NCBI GenBank assembly: GCA_020161845.1
Contig: JAIUNK010000011.1
Coordinates: 41,669-105,668 of the forward strand
Source of the DNA: Actinomycetota bacterium
GTDB taxonomy: Bacteria > Actinomycetota > Actinomycetes > Actinomycetales > Dermatophilaceae
Reading direction: 5' to 3'
Length of the DNA: 64,000 nt
Each line of letters opens with the position of its first letter. Positions within the stretch are counted from its first letter, which is position 1. Shown one piece after another: positions 27,517-42,122 of this stretch. Both the position numbers and the translations under genes were made by a program. The notes under the pieces were generated by a model. The model searched no databases, was not told the origin of the DNA, and saw only the letters and a program-made list of their open reading frames with translations.

Positions 27517-30153
27517 ATGGAGGGTCCAGAAATCACGTTCGCCGAAGCCGTCATCGACAATGGCAGCTACGGCACCCGCAAGATCCGGTTCGAGACCGGA
27601 CGCCTCGCCAAGCAGGCCGCCGGCTCAGTCACGGCGTACCTCGATGACGAGACCACGCTGCTGTCCACCACCACGGCCAGCAAGCACCCGAAAGACCAGT
27701 TCGACTTCTTCCCGCTGACGGTGGACGTCGAGGAGCGGATGTACGCCGCGGGCAAGATCCCCGGCAGCTTCTTCCGCCGCGAGGGCCGCCCGTCCACGGA
27801 CGCGATCCTCACCTGCCGGTTGATCGACCGGCCGCTGCGCCCGACCTTCAAGAAGGGGCTGCGCAACGAGGTTCAGGTCGTCATCACGGTGCTGAGCCTG
27901 AACCCCGACCACCAGTACGACGTGCTGGCCATCAACGCCGCCTCCGCCTCGACCCAGATCTCGGGCCTGCCGTTCTCCGGCCCGGTCGGCGGGGTGCGCG
28001 TCTCCCTGATCGAGGGCACCTGGGTGGCGTTCCCGAACTTCTCCGACAGCGAGCGCTCGACGTTCGACATGGTGGTGGCCGGCCGCATCGTCCGGCACGG
28101 CGACGGACCGGCCGACGACGACGTCGCGATCATGATGGTCGAGGCCGAGGCCACCGACGCGACCTGGAACCTCGTCAAGAACGAGGGCAAGCAGGCGCCG
28201 ACCGAGGAGGTCGTGGCCGCCGGGCTGGAGGCCGCCAAGAAGCCGATCGCCACCCTGTGCCGCGCCCAGGAGGAGCTGGCTCGGACTGCCGCCAAGGAGG
28301 TCGCCGAGTTCCCGATCTACCTGGACTACCAGCCCGATGCCTACGAGGCCGTCGAGGCCGCCGCGCAGGACCAGCTGCGCGAGCTGCTGGCCATCCCGGG
28401 CAAGCAGGAGCGCGAGACGAAGCTGGACGAGCTCAAGGCCACGTTGAAGGACGAGTTGGCCGGCGAGCCCGGCGACAAGGGCATGGACGCGACGGCCAAG
28501 CGCTTCCACGGCCGCGACAAGGAGATCTCGGCGGCCTACCGGGCGGTGCAGAAGAAGCTCGTCCGCGAGCGGATCCTGCGCGACAAGGTCCGCATCGACG
28601 GCCGCGGGCTGGCTGACATCCGGGCCCTGGGTGCCGAGGTCGAGGTGCTCCCGCGGGTGCACGGATCGGCGATCTTCGAGCGGGGCGAGACCCAGATCAT
28701 GGGCGTCACCACGCTGAACATGCTCCGCATGGAGCAGCAGCTCGACACGCTGTCGCCGGTGAGCCGCAAGCGCTACATGCACAACTACAACTTCCCGCCG
28801 TATTCGACCGGTGAGACCGGCCGCGTCGGGTCGCCCAAGCGTCGCGAGATCGGCCACGGCGCGCTGGCGGAGCGGGCGCTCATGCCGGTGCTGCCGACCC
28901 GCGAGGAGTTCCCCTATGCGATCCGGCAGGTGTCCGAGGCCCTCGGGTCCAACGGCTCCACGTCGATGGGCTCGGTCTGCGCCTCGACACTGTCGCTGCT
29001 CAACGCCGGCGTGCCGCTGCGCGCGCCGGTCGCGGGCATCGCGATGGGCCTGGTCTCGGCGGAGATCGACGGGCAGACGCAGTACGCCGCGCTCACCGAC
29101 ATCCTCGGCGCCGAGGACGCGTTCGGCGACATGGACTTCAAGGTCGCCGGCACCCGCGAGTTCGTCACGGCCATCCAGCTGGACACCAAGCTCGACGGCA
29201 TCCCGGCGTCGGTCCTGGCCGGGGCGCTGACCCAGGCCCGCGACGCCCGGCTCTACATCCTGGATGTGATGACCGAGGCGATCGACGCGCCCGACGAGAT
29301 GAGCCCGTTCGCGCCTCGCGTCATCTCGGTGAAGGTGCCGGTCGACAAGATCGGTGAGGTCATCGGCCCGAAGGGCAAGATGATCAACCAGATCCAGGAG
29401 GACACCGGCGCCGACATCTCCATCGAGGACGACGGCACGGTCTACATCGGCGCGACCGACGGCCCCTCGGCCGAGGCGGCCCGCAACGCGATCAACGCCA
29501 TCGCCAACCCGACGATGCCGGAGATCGGCGAACGCTTCCTCGGCACCGTGGTGAAGACCACGACGTTCGGGGCGTTCATCTCCCTGCTTCCCGGCAAGGA
29601 CGGCTTGCTGCACATCTCCGAGGTGCGCAAGCTCGTCGGGGGCAAGCGGATCGACTCGGTCGACGACGTGTTGGCCATCGGCCAGAAGGTGCAGGTCGAG
29701 CTCAAGGAGGTCGACCCGCGGGGCAAGCTCTCGCTCGGTGCGGTGCTGACCGAGGAGCAGCAGGCTGCGGCCGATGCCGCGGCCGCCGACGAGGGCGAGC
29801 GCCGCGGCGGTCGTGGTGAGCGTGGCGGCGACCGTGGCGACCGGTTCGGTGACCGGGGCGGACGCGACGGTGAGCGTGGTGGACGCGATGGCGACCGCCG
29901 GGATCGCCGGCCGCGACGCGAGGACGGCGAGGGGACCGGCTCCGGTCCCGACGCCGACGGCGAGAACGGCGGGGATGGCGACGAGCGGGGCGAACGTCGC
30001 TCCCGCAGCCGGCGCCGTCGGCCCCGTCGCGAGGACGGTGGCGCCGATGGAGCCGAGGGCGTCGAGCACGGCGAGGGCACCCGAGAGGCCGACGCGCTGG
30101 CGTCGTCTGCCGAGGCCAACGACAGCGTGAGCGCCTCCTCCGAAGAGGCCTGA
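27517..30153 (+). CDS. pnp: Polyribonucleotide nucleotidyltransferase with long RG/RD-rich disordered C-tail
   Basis: [66 protein letters not shown] and S1 domains. Confidence 0.98.
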
Positions 30154-30189: not shown

Positions 30190-30223
30190 AAGGGCCGGTA
30201 CGTCGCACGACGTACCGGCCCTT
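30190..30223 (+). terminator. Hairpin terminator after pnp
   Basis: AAGGGCCGGTACGTC-GCAC-GACGTACCGGCCCTT, perfect 15-bp stem. Confidence 0.75.
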
Positions 30224-30242: not shown

Positions 30243-30470
30243 CCACTGCCCGCTCGTCCGCCCATTCCAGCGCCGCCCTCTGCCCGCCATCCACTGCCGC
30301 CCCTTTTCCCCCTCGTCCACTGCGGCCCGTTGTCCCCCCTCGTCGACTGCCGCCCTCTTCGTGGCACTGCCGCCCCTCTTGAAGCAGGGCGGCAGTCGTG
30401 CGATTGGGGCGGCAGTCGTGCGATTGGGGCGGCAATCGTGCGATTGGGGCGGCAATCGTGCGATTGGGGC
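30243..30470. repeat. Intergenic repeat block: degenerate CACTGCCGCCC units followed by four 20-bp tandem units GGCA(G/A)TCGTGCGATTGGGGC
   Basis: Exact 20-nt period over 30391-30470; upstream GACTGCCGCCC (30345) is the reverse complement of GGGCGGCAGTC (30387). Confidence 0.85.
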
Positions 30471-30575
30471 CCCGCCGGACCGGAGAGCCGCAGCGTCTCC
30501 GAGCCGGCGCCGAGGTTGTCCACAGGAAGAGGTCGGGCCGCCCCACGATGGCCTTGCGCCGGGCACACTGGCGCG

Positions 30576-31957: not shown

Positions 31958-32931
31958 GCGCCGTAGTCCAATTCGGGTCCCGCGCACGCCGGGGGCACCG
32001 CAGCAAGCACCCGTTCCCAGGACAGGTAGCGGTGCAGCGCCGCGACCCGACCTACCGCGGGCAGGGCCGCCCGCAGCCGCGCCATCGGTACGTCGTACGC
32101 GTCGGCCCACACCCCCAGGTAGGCGTCCACCACCCCGGTGACTCGCGGGTCGTCGATCGCGCACCTCCACTCCTGCGCCATCACCCGCTCGGGAACCAGC
32201 ACCGAGCACAGCGGATGCCCCCAGAACGCGTCGCCGAGGTCGAAGAACCTCAGCGGGCCGGTGCCCGGCACGAAGGCGTTGTTGGGGTGCAGGTCGTTGT
32301 GCTCCAGGGTGTTCGGCAGGCCAAGGTCGGCGACGGTCGCGGCGGCCGCCGCCATCAGCGGTACCCCCGCGAGCAGCGCTCGCGCGGTCGGGTCGTCGAT
32401 GCGCAGCAGGTGGGCTTCCGGTAGGAGAACGGCTCGGCGTACGGCGTCAGCTGCGACCGTCGGAGCATCGGCCGGGTCGAGGACGGGCAGGCCGGTGGCG
32501 GCCGGTACGTCGGGGTCGGTGGCGAGGTCGAGCTGAAGCGCGGCGTACTGCGTCAGCAGCAGCTCCCACTCGGCCGGGTGGACCGGTCGGCCCTGCGTCC
32601 GCGCGTGTTCGGCCAGGGTGGGGCCGCCGTCCGGGGAGAGCAACCAACCGCGCGACGCCTCGACCGCGAGGGGAGGCAGGACGCGGCCGGGGGAGCGGGC
32701 GTGAATCCGCGCCACCAGGGCCGCCTCGAAGGCGCCGGGCGCACTGTTCTCCTTGAACCAGAGGCGCCCCACGTCCGTGGGCACGGTGAGCTGGGTCGAC
32801 CAGACCCGGATGCGCGGCTGCTCGATGGGCCCGGTCACGGTGCGTCCGGCGCAGGCCAGCCGATCGAGAATCCACGCCTCGGCCTCCCGGCGCCAGTCCG
32901 ACGAGGACCACCAGGTCACGAGATCGCGCAC
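31930..32931 (-). CDS. Aminoglycoside phosphotransferase/choline kinase-fold protein
   Basis: LWFKE (ATP-binding Lys), LEHNDLHPNN (Brenner motif), FFDLGDA..GHP. Confidence 0.85.
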   Translation of the reverse strand: MRDLVTWWSSSDWRREAEAWILDRLACAGRTVTGPIEQPRIRVWSTQLTVPTDVGRLWFKENSAPGAFEAALVARIHARSPGRVLPPLAVEASRGWLLSPDGGPTLAEHARTQGRPVHPAEWELLLTQYAALQLDLATDPDVPAATGLPVLDPADAPTVAADAVRRAVLLPEAHLLRIDDPTARALLAGVPLMAAAAATVADLGLPNTLEHNDLHPNNAFVPGTGPLRFFDLGDAFWGHPLCSVLVPERVMAQEWRCAIDDPRVTGVVDAYLGVWADAYDVPMARLRAALPAVGRVAALHRYLSWERVLAAVPPACAGPELDYGAQWLRHALT

Positions 32932-33011
32932 GTCGGGTAGTGAATACGGTCTAGCGCCGCCACGTCCACCGGTTTCCGTCCGCGGCCCCTCCCGGCGCGG
33001 CGCGCACGTCC

Positions 33012-33081
33012 TGTGGGTGCGGATGTGGGCGCATAACCTGCTGCTATCGCGACGACTTCGGTGCCCAGAGCCGCACCCACA
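33012..33081. repeat. Dispersed 70-bp palindromic element, copy B
   Basis: Perfect 11-bp terminal inverted repeat TGTGGGTGCGG...CCGCACCCACA; abuts the sucrase-ferredoxin stop codon. Confidence 0.7.
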
Positions 33082-34077
33082 TCATGGATCCACCACGGGG
33101 TCGATGTGCCCGATGGGGTCGACGGGGTCGATGTGCCCGACGGGGTCGATGTGCTCGACGTGGTCGACGATCGGTACGGCGGCGCGGCTCGGCGCCGTGG
33201 CCGCACAGGTGAGCAATTCGGCGCGGCGGATCTCGTTGTGCCCGTGCACGACTGCGGCGAGCCGGCCGTCGAGAAGGATCTCGCGGCTCCAGCCGCCCGC
33301 TCGTCGGGCCTGCGCTCGGGCGGGTGCTGCCGCCTCGGAACCGGCCCGTCGGGGCCGGGCGGTCAGGCGGGCCCGATCCCAGGGGAGTACGCCCAGTTCC
33401 GGCGCGACCGCCAGGAGCGTCACCTGATCCTGCGGCGATCGGCCGGTGACGCCGCGCAGGTGGGCGACGTCCGGTACGCCGCGCCGGTGCGCCGCCACCA
33501 CGTCGGCGGCGACACCGGGGTCGAGCCCGCCGTAGCACGCCCCGTCGGGCAGGACGATCATGTTGGCCGCGAACCGGTCGCCCCCGGTGTGGGTGGTCTC
33601 CCAGACGGAGTCCGGCTGCTCGGCCGCCAGGGCCGCCGCGACCGGCCGGCCCCGGACCGCGCAACACACGTCGTGGCGGCCGTTCGTGCACACCAGCATG
33701 ATCGGCTCGCCGGGCCCGGTGGGGACGGGGTTGGCCAACGCCGAAAAGACCGCCGCCCACCCCTGCGCCAGCGTGCCCCACACCTGACCGGCCGGCGGCC
33801 CGGTGTCGACGACGGCCCAGCGGCGATCCGCGCCGTCGGCCCGGTGGTCGCTGGGTCGCGCCCCCGGACGGCGTACCAGCTGCAACCGCGCCCCCACGGA
33901 CTCCAGCCCCCGGCGCAACTCCGCCCGATCGGGGATCGGGAGCCCGGCGAGCGACTCCAGCGCGTCGCGGCCCCAGCCGGCCGATTGCTCGATCAGCAAC
34001 CACCGACGGGCCGGGGGAGCGGTGCCGATGAGCGGGTCGCCGCGGTCCCGCGCGGCATCGGAGCAGCGCGGACGCAT
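33082..34077 (-). CDS. Sucrase/ferredoxin-like (thioredoxin-like [2Fe-2S]) protein
   Basis: WLLIEQ...WGRDAL, LVCTNGRHDVCCAVRG (C-x8-C), WETTHTGGDRFAAN; TGATG coupling to the JmjC gene. Confidence 0.9.
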   Translation of the reverse strand: MRPRCSDAARDRGDPLIGTAPPARRWLLIEQSAGWGRDALESLAGLPIPDRAELRRGLESVGARLQLVRRPGARPSDHRADGADRRWAVVDTGPPAGQVWGTLAQGWAAVFSALANPVPTGPGEPIMLVCTNGRHDVCCAVRGRPVAAALAAEQPDSVWETTHTGGDRFAANMIVLPDGACYGGLDPGVAADVVAAHRRGVPDVAHLRGVTGRSPQDQVTLLAVAPELGVLPWDRARLTARPRRAGSEAAAPARAQARRAGGWSREILLDGRLAAVVHGHNEIRRAELLTCAATAPSRAAVPIVDHVEHIDPVGHIDPVDPIGHIDPVVDP

Positions 34078-35414
34078 CAGTCGACCACCGCGATGCCGTC
34101 GACGACCAGGCGCCGGGCGAGCCTGCCCGACGCGGCCTCCTCGCCCGGTACCAGCTCAGCGACCCGGACCGGTTCGCCGGCGAGCAGGCGAGCGACGGCG
34201 CCTTGCGCGGCGGCCGGCACGGGGGTGCGGCCGGCGCGGGACCGTACGACGAGGGCGGCCGAGCTGTCCGGCCCGCTCGACTCGAGGGTCGCCATCAGGT
34301 GGCCGCGCAGCCGCAGCGCATCGGTGGCGGTCAGGGTATCGGCTGCGGCCAGCTGCTCCAGCACGGGCCGAGGTTCGGGGCGCTGGGCCGCTCGGGCCGT
34401 GGCACCGAGCGCGGCGGCAATCGTCGCCGCGGGAAGCTCGTCCACGGCGCGCCGCAGGGCCTGCCTGACCATCGCCACCGCGGCCTCGGCCTCGGCCTCT
34501 GCAGGTTGGCAGGGCGGTTCCGCCGCCATATGGAGCCCGGGGTCGAGCCCGGGGTCGAGCCCGGGATCGATGCCGACATCGATCCCCACCGGCAGGCTCT
34601 CCCGCAGCCGGACGTCCTCGGCGAGGGTGCGGCGGACCTGCTGCAGGAGCGCGTCGGCGAGGTGCATCCGGGTCCAGGTGTGAATGCCGATCGTGAGGTG
34701 GATCGAGATCTGGTCGGAGGCCGTGGCGGAGTGCAGGTAACCGCGCGGCAGGTACAGCACGTCCCCGCGACGCAACTCGACGGCCAGGTCTGGGTCGCCG
34801 GTGGCGGCCTCGGCAACGGCCGCACGGTGCTGCTCCCAGGGCTGGTCGCGCAGCGGGTGCGGCCACACCGGGCGGTGGACCCGCCACCGCTTGGCGCCGT
34901 GCACCTGGACGACGAAGACGTCGTGGATGTCGTAGTGCGCGGCGAACCCCTGGTGGCCGGGCGGCGTGACATAGGCGTTGACCTGCACCGGGTGGCCCAG
35001 CTCCGCCGCGAGCGACTGCGCCAGGTCGACGACGGGGGGCCAGGTGCGATGCAGCCCCTGCAGCACGATGGTGGCGCCGTCGTCGAAGCGGCGTCGTACG
35101 GCGTCCTCATCGACCTGATCGCCGATGCCGGCGCCGACGCCGCCACCGATCGTGTAGTCGCGCTCCGGGAGCGGGTGGCCCGCCTGCGCCATCCGCAGGA
35201 ATGGGGTGCGCAGCCCACGGCGGGTGAGCAGATCGTCGACGGCGGCGGGGGAGAAGAGCTCGGCGGTCTCCTCCGAGTGCGCGTCCCGTTCCGAGGCGGT
35301 GACCAGCAGCGGCGTACGGCCCCAGTGGTCACGAACGAACTGCTCGCGCCGAGACGCGAGCAGTCGTTCGAGCGGGCCGATCGGACCCGGGCCGGCGGAC
35401 CGGCCGGGCGGCAT
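34077..35414 (-). CDS. JmjC/cupin_4 2OG-Fe(II) hydroxylase (NO66/MINA53/YcfD-like)
   Basis: VNAYVTP, GFAAHYDIHDVFVVQVHGAKRW (HxD plus 2OG-binding Lys), GDVLYLPRGYLHSA (distal His), C-terminal extension. Confidence 0.92.
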   Translation of the reverse strand: MPPGRSAGPGPIGPLERLLASRREQFVRDHWGRTPLLVTASERDAHSEETAELFSPAAVDDLLTRRGLRTPFLRMAQAGHPLPERDYTIGGGVGAGIGDQVDEDAVRRRFDDGATIVLQGLHRTWPPVVDLAQSLAAELGHPVQVNAYVTPPGHQGFAAHYDIHDVFVVQVHGAKRWRVHRPVWPHPLRDQPWEQHRAAVAEAATGDPDLAVELRRGDVLYLPRGYLHSATASDQISIHLTIGIHTWTRMHLADALLQQVRRTLAEDVRLRESLPVGIDVGIDPGLDPGLDPGLHMAAEPPCQPAEAEAEAAVAMVRQALRRAVDELPAATIAAALGATARAAQRPEPRPVLEQLAAADTLTATDALRLRGHLMATLESSGPDSSAALVVRSRAGRTPVPAAAQGAVARLLAGEPVRVAELVPGEEAASGRLARRLVVDGIAVVD

Positions 35415-35716
35415 CAGGCAGGGACTCCGGCGCCGCCGTCGGCACCCTTGTCGGCGCCACCGTCGGCCCCGCCATCCGCGCCACCGTCGGCACCCTTGTC
35501 GGCGCCGCCGTCGGCGCCGCCGTCGGCACCCTTGTCAGCGCCACCGTCGGCACCCTTGTCGGCGCCGCCATCGGCCCCGCCATCCGCACCGCCATCGGCG
35601 CCACGGTCGGCGCCACCGTCACCCTCGCGGCCGCGGACCGCACCCATGTCGGCACCGCCGTCCGCGCCGCCGTCGCCCATCGGGCCCAGAACCTCGTTTT
35701 CGCCGGCGTCCGTCAT
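35414..35716 (-). CDS. Small Gly/Ala/Asp-rich peptide with 19 D-x-G-A repeats
   Basis: AAGGGA SD, ATG at 35716, stop overlapping the JmjC ATG (TGATG); 13 DGGA, 4 DKGA, 1 DRGA, 1 DMGA. Confidence 0.8.
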   Translation of the reverse strand: MTDAGENEVLGPMGDGGADGGADMGAVRGREGDGGADRGADGGADGGADGGADKGADGGADKGADGGADGGADKGADGGADGGADGGADKGADGGAGVPA

Positions 35717-35814
35717 GTCGCCAATCCCTTCGTCGAGCGAATCTGACTACTGTCCGGCCATCCTGGCCTCGTCGTGTGACGCCCGCAACAGCAGCCACGA
35801 AGCCGAACGCCGGA

Positions 35815-36834
35815 TCACGCGTCGATGGCGCCGTACGTGCTCTTCGCTCGCTCCAGGGCCGAGACGTAGCCCGCGCGGCCGTACCCGCTCGTGTCGACGT
35901 CCGCGGGCACGGCGAGCAGCCCGCGGACCGCATCGACCGAGCCGAACCCCTTGCGCTCCAGCCAGTTGTCCAGGCCGGCGACCAACAGCCCGGCGTAGTC
36001 CTCACCCTGGCGGACCAGTGCGGACGTCGTCATCACGACGTCCGCTCCGGCGAGGAGGTAGCGGATCACGTCGTCGGCGGTCTCGACCCCGGTGGTGCCG
36101 GCCAGCGAGGCGCGCACCCGTCCGTGCAGGGCGGCGATCCAGGTCTGCGGCAGCCGGGCCTCCGCGGGCGCCGACAGCTCCAGGCCCGTGTCGACGGTGA
36201 TGGCCTCGATGTCGATCCGGGGCTGGATCCACCGGTTGAACAGCACCAGGCCGTCTGCCCCCGCCGCGTCGAGGCGCATCGCCATCGACCCGAACGAACT
36301 GAAGTAGGGGCTCAGCTTCACCGCCACCGGGATCGAGACGGCCTCCTTGACCAGGCCGAGGATCTCCAGGTGACGCCGCTCGATGATCTCCCCGTCGACC
36401 GTGACGTCGCCCGGCACCAGGAAGACATTGAGCTCCAGCGCCGCGGCCCCGGCGTCCTGCATCTGTCGCCCGAATTGCGCCCAGCTGCCCAGCGTCGAAC
36501 CGTTGATCGAACCGATCACGGGCACGTCCACCGCCCGGACCGCTTGCTCCAGCAAGCGCAGGTAGCGGTCCGACAACCCGGAGTCGTTGGCGGGCACGGT
36601 GGGGAAGTAGGTCAGCGACTCCGCGAACGACTCCTCGTGCACCTCCTCCAGGTAGATGTCCCGGGCCGCCTCGTGGCGCAGCTGCTCTTCGAACAGCGAG
36701 TAGAGCACCACCGCGCCGACGCCCCCGTCGGCGAGCCGGCGCACCCCGTCCACCGTCTGGGACAGCGGCCCGGCCGAGGCCACCACCGGGTTGCGCAGCG
36801 TCAGACCCAGATAACGGGTGGTCAGATCAGGCAC
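35815..36834 (-). CDS. Dihydroorotate dehydrogenase-like FMN protein (PFOR-associated)
   Basis: YLGLTLRNPVVASAGPL, GAVVLYSLFEEQ, PVAVKLSPYF, ADGLVLFNR; lacks the NxSCPN catalytic Cys. Confidence 0.9.
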   Translation of the reverse strand: MPDLTTRYLGLTLRNPVVASAGPLSQTVDGVRRLADGGVGAVVLYSLFEEQLRHEAARDIYLEEVHEESFAESLTYFPTVPANDSGLSDRYLRLLEQAVRAVDVPVIGSINGSTLGSWAQFGRQMQDAGAAALELNVFLVPGDVTVDGEIIERRHLEILGLVKEAVSIPVAVKLSPYFSSFGSMAMRLDAAGADGLVLFNRWIQPRIDIEAITVDTGLELSAPAEARLPQTWIAALHGRVRASLAGTTGVETADDVIRYLLAGADVVMTTSALVRQGEDYAGLLVAGLDNWLERKGFGSVDAVRGLLAVPADVDTSGYGRAGYVSALERAKSTYGAIDA

Positions 36835-36837
36835 GAC

Positions 36838-39800
36838 TCAGCCCTCCTTCCGTGCGTCCGCCGCGAAGTCGTGCGCCTCGCGGGTCGCCATCTGCTCGTA
36901 TTCGGCCCAGCGCCGCGCCACCTGCTGCTGGCCCAGCTGCAACAACCGATCCGCCTCGACGGGATCGGCGCTGGCCAGCATCCGGAAGCGCAGCTCGTTC
37001 TTGTGGTAGTCGTTCAGCGTGATCCGCGGCCGTGGGCTATCCAGCAGGAAGGGGTTCCGGCCGGCGGCACGCAGGATCGGGTTGTAGCGCATCAGCGGCC
37101 AGTGCCCGGAGGCGACCGCCTTGTATTGCTGGTCCAGGCCCTTGCGCATGTCGATGCCGTGGGCGATGCAGTGGCTGTAGGCGATGATCAGGCTCGGCCC
37201 GTCGTAGGCCTCCGCCTCCCGGAACGCCTTGAGCGTCTGCTGCGGGTCGGCGCCCATCGCGACGCGTGCGACGTAGACGTGCCCGTATGCCGCAGCCTGC
37301 ATCGCCAGGTCCTTCTTGGTGGTGGTCTTGCCCGCCGCAGCGAACTTGGCCACCGCACCCAGGGGCGTCGACTTCGAGCTCTGACCACCGGTGTTGGAGT
37401 AGACCTCCGTGTCCATCACCAGCACGTTCACGTCCCGACCCGAGGCCAGCACGTGGTCCAGCCCGCCAGAGCCGATGTCGTAGGCCCAGCCGTCGCCGCC
37501 GACGATCCACACCGAACGGCGTACCAGGTGGTCGACCACCGAGACGAGGTCCTGCACGGCCGTGCCGTCCAACGACTCCAGCCGTTCGCGCAGCCTCTCC
37601 ACCCGGTCCTGTTGGGCGAGGATCTCGTTCTCCCGCTCCTGCGGCGCGGTCAGGATCGCATCGACGAGCTCGGCGCCGACCTGGTGGCGCAGTCCCCGGA
37701 GCCGCTTGCTCGCCAGGCCCGCTTGGAGGTCCGCCGCGAGTCGCATGCCCAGACCGAACTCGGCATTGTCCTCGAAGAGGCTGTTGCTCCAGGCCGGTCC
37801 GCGGCCGGCGGCGTTCTTCGTCCACGGCGTCGTCGGCAGGTTGCCGCCGTAGATGGAGGAGCAGCCGGTCGCGTTCGCGACCATCGCCCGGTCCCCGAAG
37901 AGCTGGGTGAGCAGCTTGACGTACGGCGTCTCGCCACAGCCGCTGCAGGCCCCGGAGAACTCGAACAGCGGTTCCAGGTATTGGATGCCGCGCACGTTGC
38001 CGAAGTCGACCTTGGACCGCGTGTTGACGGGGATCGACTCGAAGAAGGCGATGTTCTCCCGGGCCGGCTCCCGGTCCCGCACCGGCGCCAGGTTGATGGC
38101 CCGCCGGTTCGGCTGCTCGACCGGCTTGACCGGGCAGGCCTCGACGCACAGGCCACAGCCGGTGCAGTCCTCGGCGTACACCTGCAGCGTGTAGTGCTCC
38201 CCGGGGATGCCGGCGGCGTTCAGCGGCGCCGACTCATAACTCTCCGGCGCCCCGTCGAGGTGCTTGGTCCGGAACCGCTTGGCCCGCAGCACCGCGTGCG
38301 GGCACACCATCGAACAGTTGCCGCACTGGATGCAGGCGTCCTTGTCCCAGACGGCGATGATCTCCGAGACATTGCGCTTCTCATAGGCCGTGGTGCCACT
38401 GGGGTAGGTCCCGTCGACCGGCAGGGCGCTCACCGGCAGGTGGTCGCCCCGGCCGATGAGCATCTGCGCGGTGACATCGCGGACGAATTCCGGAGCGTGC
38501 GCTGGCACCGGGGCGAGCAGGTCGTGCTGCGCCGTGACCCCCGAGGGCACCTCGATGCGGTGCAGATTGCTCACCGAGGCATCGACTGCGGCCTCGTTCT
38601 TGGCGACGACCTCCGCGCCGCGCTTGCCGTAGGTCTTGCGGATCGAGGCCTTCACCTTCTCGATCGCCACCTCCTTGGGCAGCACCCCGGAGATCGCGAA
38701 GAAGCAGGTCTGCAGGACCGTGTTGGTGCGCCCGGCCAGGCCCGCCTCGCGGGCGACCGCGGTGGCGTCGATGGCGTAGAGCTCCAGGCCCCGCTCGATG
38801 ATGCCCCGCTGCAGGCTGCTGGGCAGGTTGTCCCAGACGGCCTCCGGCGGGAACGGGGCGTTGATGAGCAGCGTGCCGCCGGGCTTGGCGAACTCCAGGA
38901 TGTCGACCCGCTCCAGGATCGACATGTGATGGCAGCCGACGAAGCTGGCCTGGGAGACCAGGTACGGCGCCCGGATCGGTGCCGGTCCGAAGCGCAGGTG
39001 GCTGACGGTCCGGGAGCCCGACTTCTTGGAGTCGTAGACGAAATACCCCTGGGCGTAGGTGCCCTCGCTCGAGCCCAGGATCTTGATCGTGTTCTTGTTG
39101 GCGCCGACCGTGCCGTCGCTGCCCAGGCCGTAGAACACGGCGCCCACGGTGCCCTCGGGCATGATGTCGAGGTCCTCACCGACCGGCAGCGACAGGTGTG
39201 TCACGTCGTCGGTGATGCCCACCGTGAACCGGGGCCGTGGGGCCTCCGCGGCCAGCTCGTCGTACACCGCGGCCACCATGGCCGGCGTGAACTCCTTGCT
39301 GGAGAGCCCGTAGCGACCCCCGATGACCAGCGGCATCGTCGCGCGCTCGCCGCGGGCCACGGCCTCGCCGAGGGCCGAGGTGATGTCGAGGAACAGCGGC
39401 TCCGCGAGGGCGCCGGGCTCCTTGGTGCGGTCCAGGACCGCGATGCGCCGCGCCGAGGCCGGGAGCGCCCCGATGATCTCGGCCGTCGGGAACGGGCGGT
39501 AGAGGCGGATCTGCAGGACTCCGACGTTGGCGCCGTCCGCATTGAGGCGCTGCGCCGTCGCTGCGGCCGTCTCCGCGCCGGAACCCATGATGACGATGAC
39601 CCGCTCGGCGTCGGGGCTGCCGTGGTAGTCGACCAGGTGGTATTGCCGTCCGGTGCGGGCGGCCAGCCGGTCCATCGCCGACTGCGTGATCCCGGGGACC
39701 TCCTGGTAGAAGGTGTTCGCGGTCTCCCGGGACTGGAAATAGGTGTCCGGGTTCTGCGCGGTCCCGCGGATGAACGGGTTCTCCGGCGACAGCGCTCGGG

Positions 39801-40419
39801 CGCGGTGCGCGCGGACCAGGTCCGTCGAGACGAGTTGGCGCAGGTCCTCGTCGCTGAGCATCTCCAGGGTGTTCAGCTCGTGGCTGGTCCGGAAGCCGTC
39901 GAAGAAGTGCACGAACGGCACCCGCGACTCCAGCGTGGCCAGTTGGGCGACCAGCGCCAGGTCGTGCGCCTCCTGCACCGACGCGCTGGCCAGCATCGCG
40001 AAGCCGGTCTGCCGCACCGCCATGACGTCCTGGTGGTCGCCGAAGATCGACAGGCCCTGGGTGGCCAGGGACCGCGCGGCGACGTGGATGACCGCCGAGG
40101 TCAGCTCGCCGGCGATCTTGTACATGTTCGGGATCATCAACAACAGGCCCTGGCTGGCCGTGAACGTCGTCGACAGGGCGCCGCCCTGCAGCGCGCCGTG
40201 GGTCGCGCCGGCCGCGCCGCCCTCGGACTGCATCTCGACGACCGTCGGCACGGTGCCCCAGACGTTGGTGCGGCCGTGCGCCGACCACTCGTCGGCCAAC
40301 TCCGCCATCGTCGAACTCGGCGTGATCGGATAGATGCTGCACAGCTCGTTCGTGCGATAGGCGACCGAGGCCGCCGCCTCGTTGCCGTCGATGATCGCCC
40401 TGCTCGGTGCTGCGGCCAT
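36838..40419 (-). CDS. nifJ: Pyruvate:ferredoxin (flavodoxin) oxidoreductase, single-chain type
   Basis: IDGNEAAA, IYPITPSSTM, MQSEGGAAG, CIQCGNCSMVCP and CTGCGLCVEACP, FEFSGACSGCGETPY, GGDGWAYDIG (TPP binding). Confidence 0.96.
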   Translation of the reverse strand: MAAAPSRAIIDGNEAAASVAYRTNELCSIYPITPSSTMAELADEWSAHGRTNVWGTVPTVVEMQSEGGAAGATHGALQGGALSTTFTASQGLLLMIPNMYKIAGELTSAVIHVAARSLATQGLSIFGDHQDVMAVRQTGFAMLASASVQEAHDLALVAQLATLESRVPFVHFFDGFRTSHELNTLEMLSDEDLRQLVSTDLVRAHRARALSPENPFIRGTAQNPDTYFQSRETANTFYQEVPGITQSAMDRLAARTGRQYHLVDYHGSPDAERVIVIMGSGAETAAATAQRLNADGANVGVLQIRLYRPFPTAEIIGALPASARRIAVLDRTKEPGALAEPLFLDITSALGEAVARGERATMPLVIGGRYGLSSKEFTPAMVAAVYDELAAEAPRPRFTVGITDDVTHLSLPVGEDLDIMPEGTVGAVFYGLGSDGTVGANKNTIKILGSSEGTYAQGYFVYDSKKSGSRTVSHLRFGPAPIRAPYLVSQASFVGCHHMSILERVDILEFAKPGGTLLINAPFPPEAVWDNLPSSLQRGIIERGLELYAIDATAVAREAGLAGRTNTVLQTCFFAISGVLPKEVAIEKVKASIRKTYGKRGAEVVAKNEAAVDASVSNLHRIEVPSGVTAQHDLLAPVPAHAPEFVRDVTAQMLIGRGDHLPVSALPVDGTYPSGTTAYEKRNVSEIIAVWDKDACIQCGNCSMVCPHAVLRAKRFRTKHLDGAPESYESAPLNAAGIPGEHYTLQVYAEDCTGCGLCVEACPVKPVEQPNRRAINLAPVRDREPARENIAFFESIPVNTRSKVDFGNVRGIQYLEPLFEFSGACSGCGETPYVKLLTQLFGDRAMVANATGCSSIYGGNLPTTPWTKNAAGRGPAWSNSLFEDNAEFGLGMRLAADLQAGLASKRLRGLRHQVGAELVDAILTAPQERENEILAQQDRVERLRERLESLDGTAVQDLVSVVDHLVRRSVWIVGGDGWAYDIGSGGLDHVLASGRDVNVLVMDTEVYSNTGGQSSKSTPLGAVAKFAAAGKTTTKKDLAMQAAAYGHVYVARVAMGADPQQTLKAFREAEAYDGPSLIIAYSHCIAHGIDMRKGLDQQYKAVASGHWPLMRYNPILRAAGRNPFLLDSPRPRITLNDYHKNELRFRMLASADPVEADRLLQLGQQQVARRWAEYEQMATREAHDFAADARKEG

Positions 40420-42122
40420 CAGAACAGCCCTCCCTGACGCGAGTCGTCCGCGGTGGCCCGGCCCCGGCCGGGGCCGGTGAGCGGCCGGTCCGGGCGGCCC
40501 TCGGGAACCATGTCGATGGCGTGCACGGGACACTGCTCATAGCAGGTGCCGCAGCCGGTGCACTTGTCGTAGTTGTAGCGGTAGCGGTGCCCGCGGCCCA
40601 GCTTGATGACCGCGTCCTCCGGGCAGGCGCCCAGGCAGCCGTCGCACTCGATGCAGTTCCCGCAGGACAGGCAGCGCTGCGCCTCGAAGGCGGCCTGCTC
40701 CGCATCGAGACCGCCGACGATCTCGTCGAAGGCGCTGACCCGGGCGTCGGGATCGAGCTCGGGTTGGGTGCGCCGGGTGAAGTCGCCGAAATACCACAGG
40801 TGCAGGTCGTCCAGCCCCACGACGGGGTGCTTCGGCGGCTTGTTGTCCGTGGTCGAGTTGAGCCAGGCGTCGATGTTGCGGGCGGCCCGCTTGCCGTGCC
40901 CCACGCCGATCGTGACGGTGCGTTCGGACGGTACGGCGTCGCCGCCGGCGAAGATTCCCGGCACGTCGGTCATCAGCGACGTCGGATCGACCTGGACCAC
41001 GTCGCCGTCGAAGCGCATCCCGGGGATGGACCTCAGGAAGTCGCTGTCGGTCTCCTGGCCCAGGGCGAGGATGACCGTATCGGCCGCGAGCTTCTCGTAG
41101 CGGCCCGTGCCGCGCGGCGTACCGTTCTCGTCAAGCTCCATCACCTCCACGGTCAGGTCGTCGTCGACCTCGGTGATGGTGCGCAGCCAGTTCATCTTGA
41201 CGCCCTCGCGCTCGGCCTCGGCGGCCTCCTCGGCGTGGGCGGGCATCTGCTCGGCCGTCCGGCGATAGACAATCATCGTTTCCTGAGCCCCGAGTCGGCG
41301 GGCTACCCGGGCGGCGTCCATCGCGGTGTTGCCGCCGCCGTAGACCGCGACCCGTCGCCCCATCACCGGCCGCTCGCCGCTGGCCACCGTGCGCAGGAAG
41401 CTGACCGCGTCGACCACCTTCTCGGCGTCCCGGGCGGGCAGGTCGACCTTGCGGCTCAGGTGCGCGCCGATCGCCACGAAGACCGCGTCGAAGCCGCCCT
41501 CCTTCTGCTCGGCCAGCAGGTCCTTGACGGTGTGGTCCGTCACGATCCGCACGCCCATCGCGAGCAGCCGGGCCACCTCGCCGTCGATGACGTCCCGCGG
41601 TAGCCGGTATTCGGGGATGCCATAACGCATCATCCCGCCGGGTTCGGGGGAGGTGTCCCGGATCTCGACCTCGTGGCCCAACCGGGCCAGATGGTAGGCG
41701 GCCGACAGCCCCGACGGTCCGGCGCCGACGACGAGCACCTTGCGCCCCGAGGCCGGCGGCGGTGCCGGGAAGCGCCAGCCCTGCTCCAACGCCATGTCGC
41801 CCAGATAGCGCTCCACCCCGTGGATCGAGATGGCGCTGTCCAGGTCGGCCCGGTTGCACGCCGACTCGCACGGGTGATAGCAGACCCGGCCGTGAATCGC
41901 GGGGAAGGGGTTGTCCCGGGTCAGCTGCAGCCAGGCGGCCTGCGGATCACCGAGCTTGAGCAGCCGCAGCCACTCCTGGATGTTCTCCCCGGCCGGACAG
42001 GCGTTGTTGCAGGGCGGGAGCAGGTCCACGTAGACCGGCATCCGGGATCGAACCGGGGCGACCCGCCCCGCGGCCTGGCTGAGGTCCGGCAGCTTGGTGA
42101 TGTCGCGGCGTGCTTCGGGCAT
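40419..42122 (-). CDS. GltD/PreT-like FAD, NAD(P), Fe-S oxidoreductase with C-terminal 2x[4Fe-4S] domain
   Basis: PCNNACPAG, GRVCYHPCESAC, VVGAGPSGL, GGGNTAMD...YRR, CLSCGNCIECDGCLGACP, CTGCGTCYEQCP. Confidence 0.9.
   Translation of the reverse strand: MPEARRDITKLPDLSQAAGRVAPVRSRMPVYVDLLPPCNNACPAGENIQEWLRLLKLGDPQAAWLQLTRDNPFPAIHGRVCYHPCESACNRADLDSAISIHGVERYLGDMALEQGWRFPAPPPASGRKVLVVGAGPSGLSAAYHLARLGHEVEIRDTSPEPGGMMRYGIPEYRLPRDVIDGEVARLLAMGVRIVTDHTVKDLLAEQKEGGFDAVFVAIGAHLSRKVDLPARDAEKVVDAVSFLRTVASGERPVMGRRVAVYGGGNTAMDAARVARRLGAQETMIVYRRTAEQMPAHAEEAAEAEREGVKMNWLRTITEVDDDLTVEVMELDENGTPRGTGRYEKLAADTVILALGQETDSDFLRSIPGMRFDGDVVQVDPTSLMTDVPGIFAGGDAVPSERTVTIGVGHGKRAARNIDAWLNSTTDNKPPKHPVVGLDDLHLWYFGDFTRRTQPELDPDARVSAFDEIVGGLDAEQAAFEAQRCLSCGNCIECDGCLGACPEDAVIKLGRGHRYRYNYDKCTGCGTCYEQCPVHAIDMVPEGRPDRPLTGPGRGRATADDSRQGGLF

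Follow-up and report, generated by a model that had tools for sequence, protein, structure and literature searches.

The window analysed here is a stretch of 64,000 nucleotides (nt) from contig JAIUNK010000011.1 of an Actinomycetota bacterium of the Dermatophilaceae (assembly GCA_020161845.1), and our subject is a set of three consecutive open reading frames (ORFs) on its minus strand, hereafter the cassette. Read 5' to 3' on that strand, the first (35716..35414) is taken from the ORF list and codes for an acidic repeat peptide of 100 aa. The second (35414..34077) and third (34077..33082), both assigned with Pfam, code for an Fe(II)/2-oxoglutarate (2OG) oxygenase of the JmjC_2 or ribosomal-oxygenase (ROX) type, with 445 aa, and for a Suc_Fer-like protein of 331 aa. 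A single base, the A of TGA and of ATG, is shared at each junction, which gives two TGATG stop/start overlaps, at 35414 and at 34077, exactly where the first-pass annotation of this DNA had placed them. By reading the sequence we also found a Shine-Dalgarno-like AAGGGA (35725..35730, minus strand) 8 nt 5' of the ATG of the peptide gene. Rfam and promoter and terminator scans of 32700-36100 gave no match. Our results support the view that the three genes form a conserved and translationally coupled unit.

The peptide starts with MTDAGENEVLGPMGDGGADGGADMGAVRGREG and continues with DxGA units; it comprises a 13-aa N-terminal non-repeat stretch, 19 D-x-G-A units in total, in which x is G, K, R or M, and the C-terminus GVPA. 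The length and the number of units first read from the DNA were thus borne out by the translation of the ORF. Neither His nor a signal peptide is present in the window peptide. At the DNA level, Tandem Repeats Finder marked 35428..35620 within the gene (minus strand), with a 12-nt period in 16 copies and a 60-nt higher-order period in 2.7 copies. A run of at least four consecutive DxGA units occurs only once in the six frames of the 4.39-Mb, 71% G+C genome, and the repeat is therefore not a chance feature. The peptide had no match in Pfam. In NCBIfam, Ser-Asp repeat adhesins gave low-complexity matches far below threshold, which we rejected as compositional.

Since open frames come cheaply at this G+C content, the coding status of the peptide gene was tested directly. 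One might suspect that G+C-rich repeat DNA has produced a spurious, non-coding frame here, given the many spurious long ORFs that occur at high G+C, the fact that all three repeat frames are open, and the failure of gene callers to record the peptide. However, across 16 consecutive units, the Asp, Gly and Ala codons never differ at positions 1 and 2, whereas variation is seen at each of the four third positions, and the sole amino-acid change is from G to K or R at x. When the first 37 codons were compared with those of a locus from the same genus (L038), 17 differed, 14 of them synonymously and 3 non-synonymously, and 13 of the 17 base differences fell at third positions. The orthologues carry GGAGG or AAGGAG, strong Shine-Dalgarno sequences, at the position equivalent to the AAGGGA of the window, and it is the D/G/A frame, a single reading frame, that is kept across more than 100 loci. 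Together with the single occurrence of such a repeat in the genome, these comparative data effectively refute an artefact. Judged by its codon pattern, synonymous excess, ribosome-binding sites and conserved frame, the small ORF is a real gene under purifying selection, as had been supposed at first reading. The exact sequences of the window peptide and of three orthologous peptides are absent from a collection of 15 billion proteins, in which six exact sequences in all, that of the window peptide among them, had no entry, and annotation pipelines therefore miss this gene. The product of the small gene is best explained as an intrinsically disordered, strongly acidic repeat protein, with the form (DGGA)n in the window.

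The oxygenase matched the JmjC_2 family (PF08007) with an E-value of 4e-27 and 94.7 bits, against a cut-off of 22. The iron triad H160-x-D162...H228 and K175, the 2OG-binding Lys 13 residues after the Asp, align with the HYD...K...H residues of NO66 and were invariant in 18 orthologues, so that the intact facial triad and Lys of the first-pass annotation hold well beyond the window. Also invariant are two motifs around the active site, NAYxTPP, which is the N-x-Y-x-T-P-P of NO66-type enzymes, and HYDIHDVF. By sequence, the closest entries in the PDB were human NO66 (7e-20) and MINA53 (3e-17), followed by YxbC and YcfD. An AlphaFold2 (AF2) model with a predicted local distance difference test score (pLDDT) of 85.9 aligned over its full length with NO66, at about 480 columns and a template-modelling (TM) score of 0.63-0.65; MINA53 and YcfD came next. 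All three ROX domains, that is, the JmjC barrel, the helical dimerisation domain and the C-terminal winged helix, are found in the model. With invariant catalytic residues and a complete NO66-like three-domain fold in the model, it is credible that the oxygenase is a working member of the ROX protein hydroxylases. Between its JmjC and helical domains lies an insert of low complexity that is specific to the genus (GIDVGIDPGLDPGLDPGL...AEAEAEA). On the DNA it appears at 34481-34586 as in-frame GLDP units with a 12-nt period together with AEAEAEA, in a low-confidence JmjC loop at residues ~280-300.

Homologous loci were gathered in three steps: the JmjC protein as query brought up 25 from actinobacteria and 2 from alphaproteobacteria, related genomes supplied 20 more, and the 80 best were retained from the at least 591 that a profile scan matched. 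Removal of two duplicates and of loci cut by contig ends left 118 evaluable actinobacterial loci. In 116 of the 118, an acidic repeat ORF rich in D, G and A either overlaps the start of the JmjC gene or stops no more than about 100 nt from it. This count relies on ORF heuristics and on peptide start codons that, in other loci, are not all fixed. Two apparent misses were N-masked loci, and both do contain the repeat ORF. The families in which the linkage is found include the Dermatophilaceae, Intrasporangiaceae, Streptomycetaceae, Micrococcaceae, Nocardioidaceae, Propionibacteriaceae and Gaiellaceae. One of the exceptions, in an Actinomadura with a divergent JmjC (L022), has a 65-aa acidic ORF without the repeat. 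In the other (L030, from the related genome G010), the place of the DGGA repeat, some 100 nt ahead of the JmjC start, is taken by a short open frame that encodes RDVDH repeats (DVDHRDVDHRDVDNRD) and extends across the JmjC start; this may be the peptide in a degenerate or diverged form. Nothing comparable to the repeat ORF was seen beside the two alphaproteobacterial JmjC homologues, which are 30% identical. The first-pass annotation had mentioned GGAD-rich small ORFs beside cupin and sucrase-ferredoxin genes of other actinomycetes, correctly as it turns out, and they are very widespread. It had also proposed that the peptide is the substrate of the JmjC protein, an idea that would lose its footing if most JmjC orthologues lacked the repeat ORF; as nearly all have it, the idea stands.

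In most genera a ~25-aa module, EGPADGGAxGxPGx(H/Q/S/T)DGGADGGAD, makes up the peptide; within the clade of the window it has been simplified to (DGGA)n. Two lineages carry DADST or DGTDGVAG units instead, and the length of the peptide ranges from ~74 to ~295 aa among the loci. Among 41 related genomes, JmjC_2 is present in 23 and a (DGGA)3 coding pattern in 10, in each case beside the JmjC gene except for one at a contig end broken within the repeat. The pattern occurred in none of the 18 related genomes without JmjC, and a reversed-pattern control gave no occurrence. In the JmjC tree, the Arthrobacter sequences (L005-L008) are nested inside the Streptomyces clade (L086-L126) with 100% support, and the Arthrobacter peptide modules are near-identical to those of Streptomyces. 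Because enzyme and module follow the same path, the cassette moves as a unit, and the sequences indicate that it was transferred horizontally as a whole between families. Near-obligate linkage, translational coupling, co-loss and joint transfer together speak for a joint function of the peptide and the oxygenase. We saw no natural in-frame fusion of the two.

Among the orthologous loci, the peptide gene commonly overlaps the JmjC gene by a single base at the stop and start codons or is set apart from it by a short gap. This arrangement is what would be expected if the peptide gene were a cis-acting leader or upstream ORF, the translation of which controls the oxygenase through coupling while its product has no function. 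Yet the amino-acid sequence is kept while the DNA varies synonymously, a specific ~25-aa module is conserved across families, and 74-295 aa is far longer than coupling requires. We thus regard a leader with a functionless product as very improbable.

Clustering of the coding-like ORFs around the ~120 loci brought out no recurrent gene family other than the JmjC and Suc_Fer-like genes, the next most frequent being found at no more than 12 loci. Specifically, no protease, transporter or exporter, regulator, protein of the RiPP recognition element (RRE) type or further tailoring gene is conserved among them, RiPP standing for ribosomally synthesised and post-translationally modified peptide, nor is an HD-domain gene conserved near the cassette. 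Of the features by which a RiPP cluster is recognised, a putative precursor gene adjoining a modifying enzyme was found at 116 of the 118 loci, the peptide being a precursor only if it is indeed the substrate; a peptidase, an exporter and a class-defining enzyme were not found. The term RiPP-like, used in the first-pass annotation, therefore fits loosely, for the precursor next to its enzyme but not for the rest. It could be that the peptide is a multi-core RiPP precursor; hydroxylation would be followed by cleavage into many small pieces, and the compounds released would be metallophore-like or bioactive. Its tandem identical units resemble multi-core precursors, the N-terminal non-repeat part is leader-like, and beta-hydroxy-Asp is a ligand of Fe(III) in siderophores. 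Against this, not only are the protease, transporter, RRE-type and tailoring genes wanting among the loci, but no cleavage motif is evident between the units. A released multi-core product thus seems improbable. Because no export or cleavage function is conserved, a product that stays inside the cell is expected.

The third protein, named 'hypothetical protein [Austwickia sp.]' in the public database, an entry that assigns the window to the genus Austwickia, matched the Suc_Fer-like family (PF06999) with an E-value of 1.2e-16 and 61.8 bits (cut-off 34.9). Residues C5, C130, C138, C139, H163, D167 and C291 are invariant in the alignment. The C-x8-C and HxGG motifs of the first-pass annotation are thus present and invariant, as C130-x8-C139 and H163-x-G-G. 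The second motif extends to H163-x-G-G-D167, that is, HxGGD and not HxGGH. The cluster motif of Apd1 and Aim32, said to come from work by Stegmaier and colleagues in 2019, is reportedly C-x8-C ... HxGGH. As HxGGD takes the place of HxGGH, the set of ligands must differ if the protein binds a cluster. No PDB sequence was significantly similar to the protein. The AF2 model (pLDDT 81.8) had as its best PDB fold 1f37, the thioredoxin-like [2Fe-2S] ferredoxin of Aquifex, which matched the central domain (probability 0.97, TM on target 0.60, E 0.05); the remaining parts of the model had no match to a solved fold. Binding of an Fe-S cluster by this protein is plausible. The C-terminus carries a genus-specific tail of HIDPV(G/D) units (33095-33169; 9/27-nt period).

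The Suc_Fer-like gene follows the JmjC gene in 78 of 110 evaluable rows (~70%), often with a 4-base overlap. On the JmjC tree this adjacency was gained or lost at least 6 and up to 11 times. Members of the family are also found at other sites of these genomes and in JmjC-free ones, and one genome with the peptide and JmjC genes has no Suc_Fer-like gene anywhere. A second paralogue lies in the genome of the window itself, on contig C32 at ~91876-92085, between a SorC/DeoR-like regulator and the gene for a type II topoisomerase B subunit; the family is thus not confined to the cassette. Because it is often non-adjacent, once absent and also present independently of the cassette, the Suc_Fer-like protein is better seen as an accessory partner than as part of an invariant core. 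The suggestion that it serves the oxygenase as a redox ferredoxin is weakened accordingly: the ferredoxin-like core and the motifs hold, but the gene is missing at ~30% of the JmjC loci and from one genome altogether, and the motif is HxGGD and not the bis-His HxGGH.

An enzyme together with its dedicated substrate is the simplest reading of the pairing of peptide and oxygenase, and the cassette is best explained as a self-contained module of two or three genes of the Actinomycetota. That the peptide is the substrate, which residue is modified, where the product goes and what the third protein does are all inferred, and we propose the following. The NO66-like JmjC oxygenase, coupled in translation to the peptide, would hydroxylate it at many repeat positions using Fe(II), 2OG and O2. 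The most likely target would be C-3 of Asp. His is frequent in an HDGGAD motif, but is absent from the window peptide and from about half of the versions; Lys and Arg are sporadic among the peptides, and some repeats consist of D, G, A, P and V only, or of D, A, S and T only. The catalytic core of the enzyme, moreover, is unchanged whether the peptide has His or not. Since His, Lys and Arg are not universal and the core is indifferent to composition, Asp is the sole common candidate; no other residue with a hydroxylatable beta-carbon in its side chain is common to every version of the peptide. That JmjC enzymes can act on Asp is illustrated by FIH, which hydroxylates Asp in AnkyrinR (PMC4543633), and JmjC hydroxylases that act on ribosomally made peptides include CzlI (PMC11575548) and BipG (PMC12707348). 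Furthermore, the Fe/2OG Asp hydroxylases of RiPP clusters are associated with precursors that bear Asp in Gly-rich GD or DG motifs (PMC12186529). The product would be retained in the cell as a polyhydroxylated polyanion, and it is plausible, if speculative, that it binds metal (Fe or Ca) or acts as an O2-dependent signal. The Suc_Fer-like protein may be an accessory partner that keeps the iron of the oxygenase reduced or acts on the product.

Several observations weigh against hydroxylation of the peptide. The residues that characterised ROX enzymes hydroxylate are His or Arg, in basic ribosomal proteins, and not Asp. The oxygenase is itself acidic overall (isoelectric point 4.9-6.0 in all 18 orthologues) and therefore has no global charge complementarity with a polyanion. 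No JmjC residue was found to covary with the type of peptide: in a comparison of JmjC columns with the His of the HDGGAD motif, or with whether a Suc_Fer-like gene lies downstream, mutual information reached 0.4 bits at best, and the top columns were all variable and non-catalytic, with a signal confounded by phylogeny. The role of the third protein is likewise uncertain, as it is absent from ~30% of the loci and its family occurs in cassette-free genomes. The same body of evidence includes the points that speak for the main alternative, in which the oxygenase hydroxylates a ribosomal or other cellular protein, as do NO66, MINA53 and YcfD, and the peptide, for example, acts as a regulator, a pseudo-substrate inhibitor or a decoy, chaperones a basic substrate, or buffers metal and so provides Fe(II). 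The nearest structures are those ribosomal oxygenases, NO66 and MINA53 and then YcfD; the N-x-Y-x-T-P-P and HYD motifs of an NO66-like pocket are invariant; the catalytic core is insensitive to the composition of the peptide; and an acidic enzyme would suit a basic substrate. A regulator, however, should be more constrained than a peptide whose length and repeat number vary and whose unit is not the same in every clade. Neither E. coli YcfD nor the two alphaproteobacterial homologues have such a partner, and the patchy presence of the cassette, in about half of the related genomes, fits an accessory module. We therefore hold hydroxylation of another cellular protein to be possible but rather unlikely. 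That the peptide is the dedicated multi-site hydroxylation substrate of the oxygenase, most probably at Asp, and stays intracellular, is the reading we tentatively adopt, with a confidence a little short of even. Its fullest form, in which the NO66-like enzyme turns the dedicated peptide into an intracellular poly-(beta-hydroxy-Asp) polymer that serves as a siderophore-like metal-binding or O2-reporting polyanion, with the thioredoxin-like Fe-S protein as a partner in redox or iron handling, is put forward with considerable doubt.

The region around the cassette has features of its own. Directly upstream and on the same strand, 35815-40533 holds an ORF of 1231 aa that resembles pyruvate:ferredoxin oxidoreductase, a label given from its sequence, and a gene for a dihydroorotate-dehydrogenase-like protein (NCBIfam PRK07565, E 1e-125). 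A gene of the latter kind is also found upstream of the cassette in the same-genus locus L038 and is absent from that position in other genera. It is possible that the cassette is co-transcribed with these upstream genes, the gap being 98 nt; if so, this would be specific to the genus. On the plus strand, 27517-30153 codes for a polynucleotide phosphorylase (PNPase) with a long C-terminal low-complexity tail rich in Arg, Gly, Asp and Glu, unusual for this enzyme. Directly after its stop codon lies a perfect 16-bp inverted repeat (30190-30223; AAGGGCCGGTACGTCG / CGACGTACCGGCCCTT), probably the pnp terminator or a processing hairpin. Farther downstream, an intergenic 20-nt tandem repeat, GGGCGGCAGTCGTGCGATTG, is present in about 5 copies (30387-30486), and just upstream of it are repeats spaced by ~27 nt (30283-30355) that are partly complementary to the 20-nt unit.

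The bacterial relatives of the human ribosomal oxygenases have barely been explored. The identification of the substrate is usually the hardest step in the study of a protein hydroxylase, and here the genome itself supplies a candidate, a gene missed by annotation and kept beside the enzyme in at least hundreds of species, among them Streptomyces albidoflavus and Arthrobacter, both amenable to laboratory work. If the peptide is indeed the substrate, the cassette would yield a small, post-translationally modified protein of a new type, a polyanion hydroxylated at multiple sites. It would also provide the first ROX-family enzyme with a dedicated non-ribosomal substrate, and would place bacterial Suc_Fer-like proteins in a functional context for the first time. 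Should the peptide regulate a hydroxylase of the ribosome instead, this would likewise be new for the ROX family.

We found no description of the cassette in full-text searches of papers on JmjC proteins, sucrase ferredoxin, RiPPs, ribosomal oxygenases with acidic repeats, or hydroxyaspartate, and a comparative-genomics paper on JmjC neighbourhoods does not mention it (PMC2938197). ROX-type JmjC hydroxylases and Fe/2OG enzymes that modify peptides are known, and the cassette belongs with these; at present there is no categorically new principle in it. With the ROX enzymes (human NO66/RIOX1 and MINA53/RIOX2, and YcfD/RoxA of E. coli and Rhodothermus), the oxygenase shares the Pfam family, the H-x-D...H and Lys residues and the three domains. 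The known members, however, act on one His or Arg of a basic ribosomal protein, and no partner is encoded with them, whereas the cassette enzyme nearly always has a polyacidic repeat protein encoded directly upstream and often a Suc_Fer-like protein downstream. The latter shares with Apd1 and Aim32 the PF06999 family, the C-x8-C and H-x-G-G motifs and a thioredoxin-like ferredoxin core, but the second His reported for their HxGGH is an invariant Asp in the cassette protein, which has, in addition, invariant Cys at 5 and 291 and further domains at both termini.

As to the reaction proposed, CinX of the cinnamycin pathway is an Fe/2OG Asp beta-hydroxylase that acts on a peptide. In another pathway, SmaO and the HD-domain enzyme SmaX convert Asp to hydroxy-Asp and then to aminomalonate (PMC12186529). 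The likeness to the cassette lies in a likely target Asp in a Gly-rich GD or DG context and in the pairing of a hydroxylase with a second metal protein. The second protein there is of the HD-domain type, whereas that of the cassette is of a thioredoxin-like Fe-S type, and hydroxylation of Asp by the cassette enzyme is so far a prediction. The SmaO paper uses neither 'JmjC' nor 'cupin' (PMC12186529). FIH is similar in being a JmjC enzyme able to hydroxylate Asp, in its case within ankyrin repeats (PMC4543633). The closest parallels in gene arrangement are CzlI, the YxbC-like Phe hydroxylase of curacozole, and BipG, the ornithine hydroxylase of biphenomycin, both JmjC-type Fe/2OG enzymes that act on a peptide of the same cluster (PMC11575548, PMC12707348), a role that for the peptide of the cassette is proposed from context. 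These enzymes modify one residue and belong to multi-gene clusters with class-defining enzymes, proteases and transporters. The cassette, in contrast, has no further conserved genes; its candidate substrate is a long repeat protein, and its oxygenase belongs to the NO66 and not to the YxbC branch.

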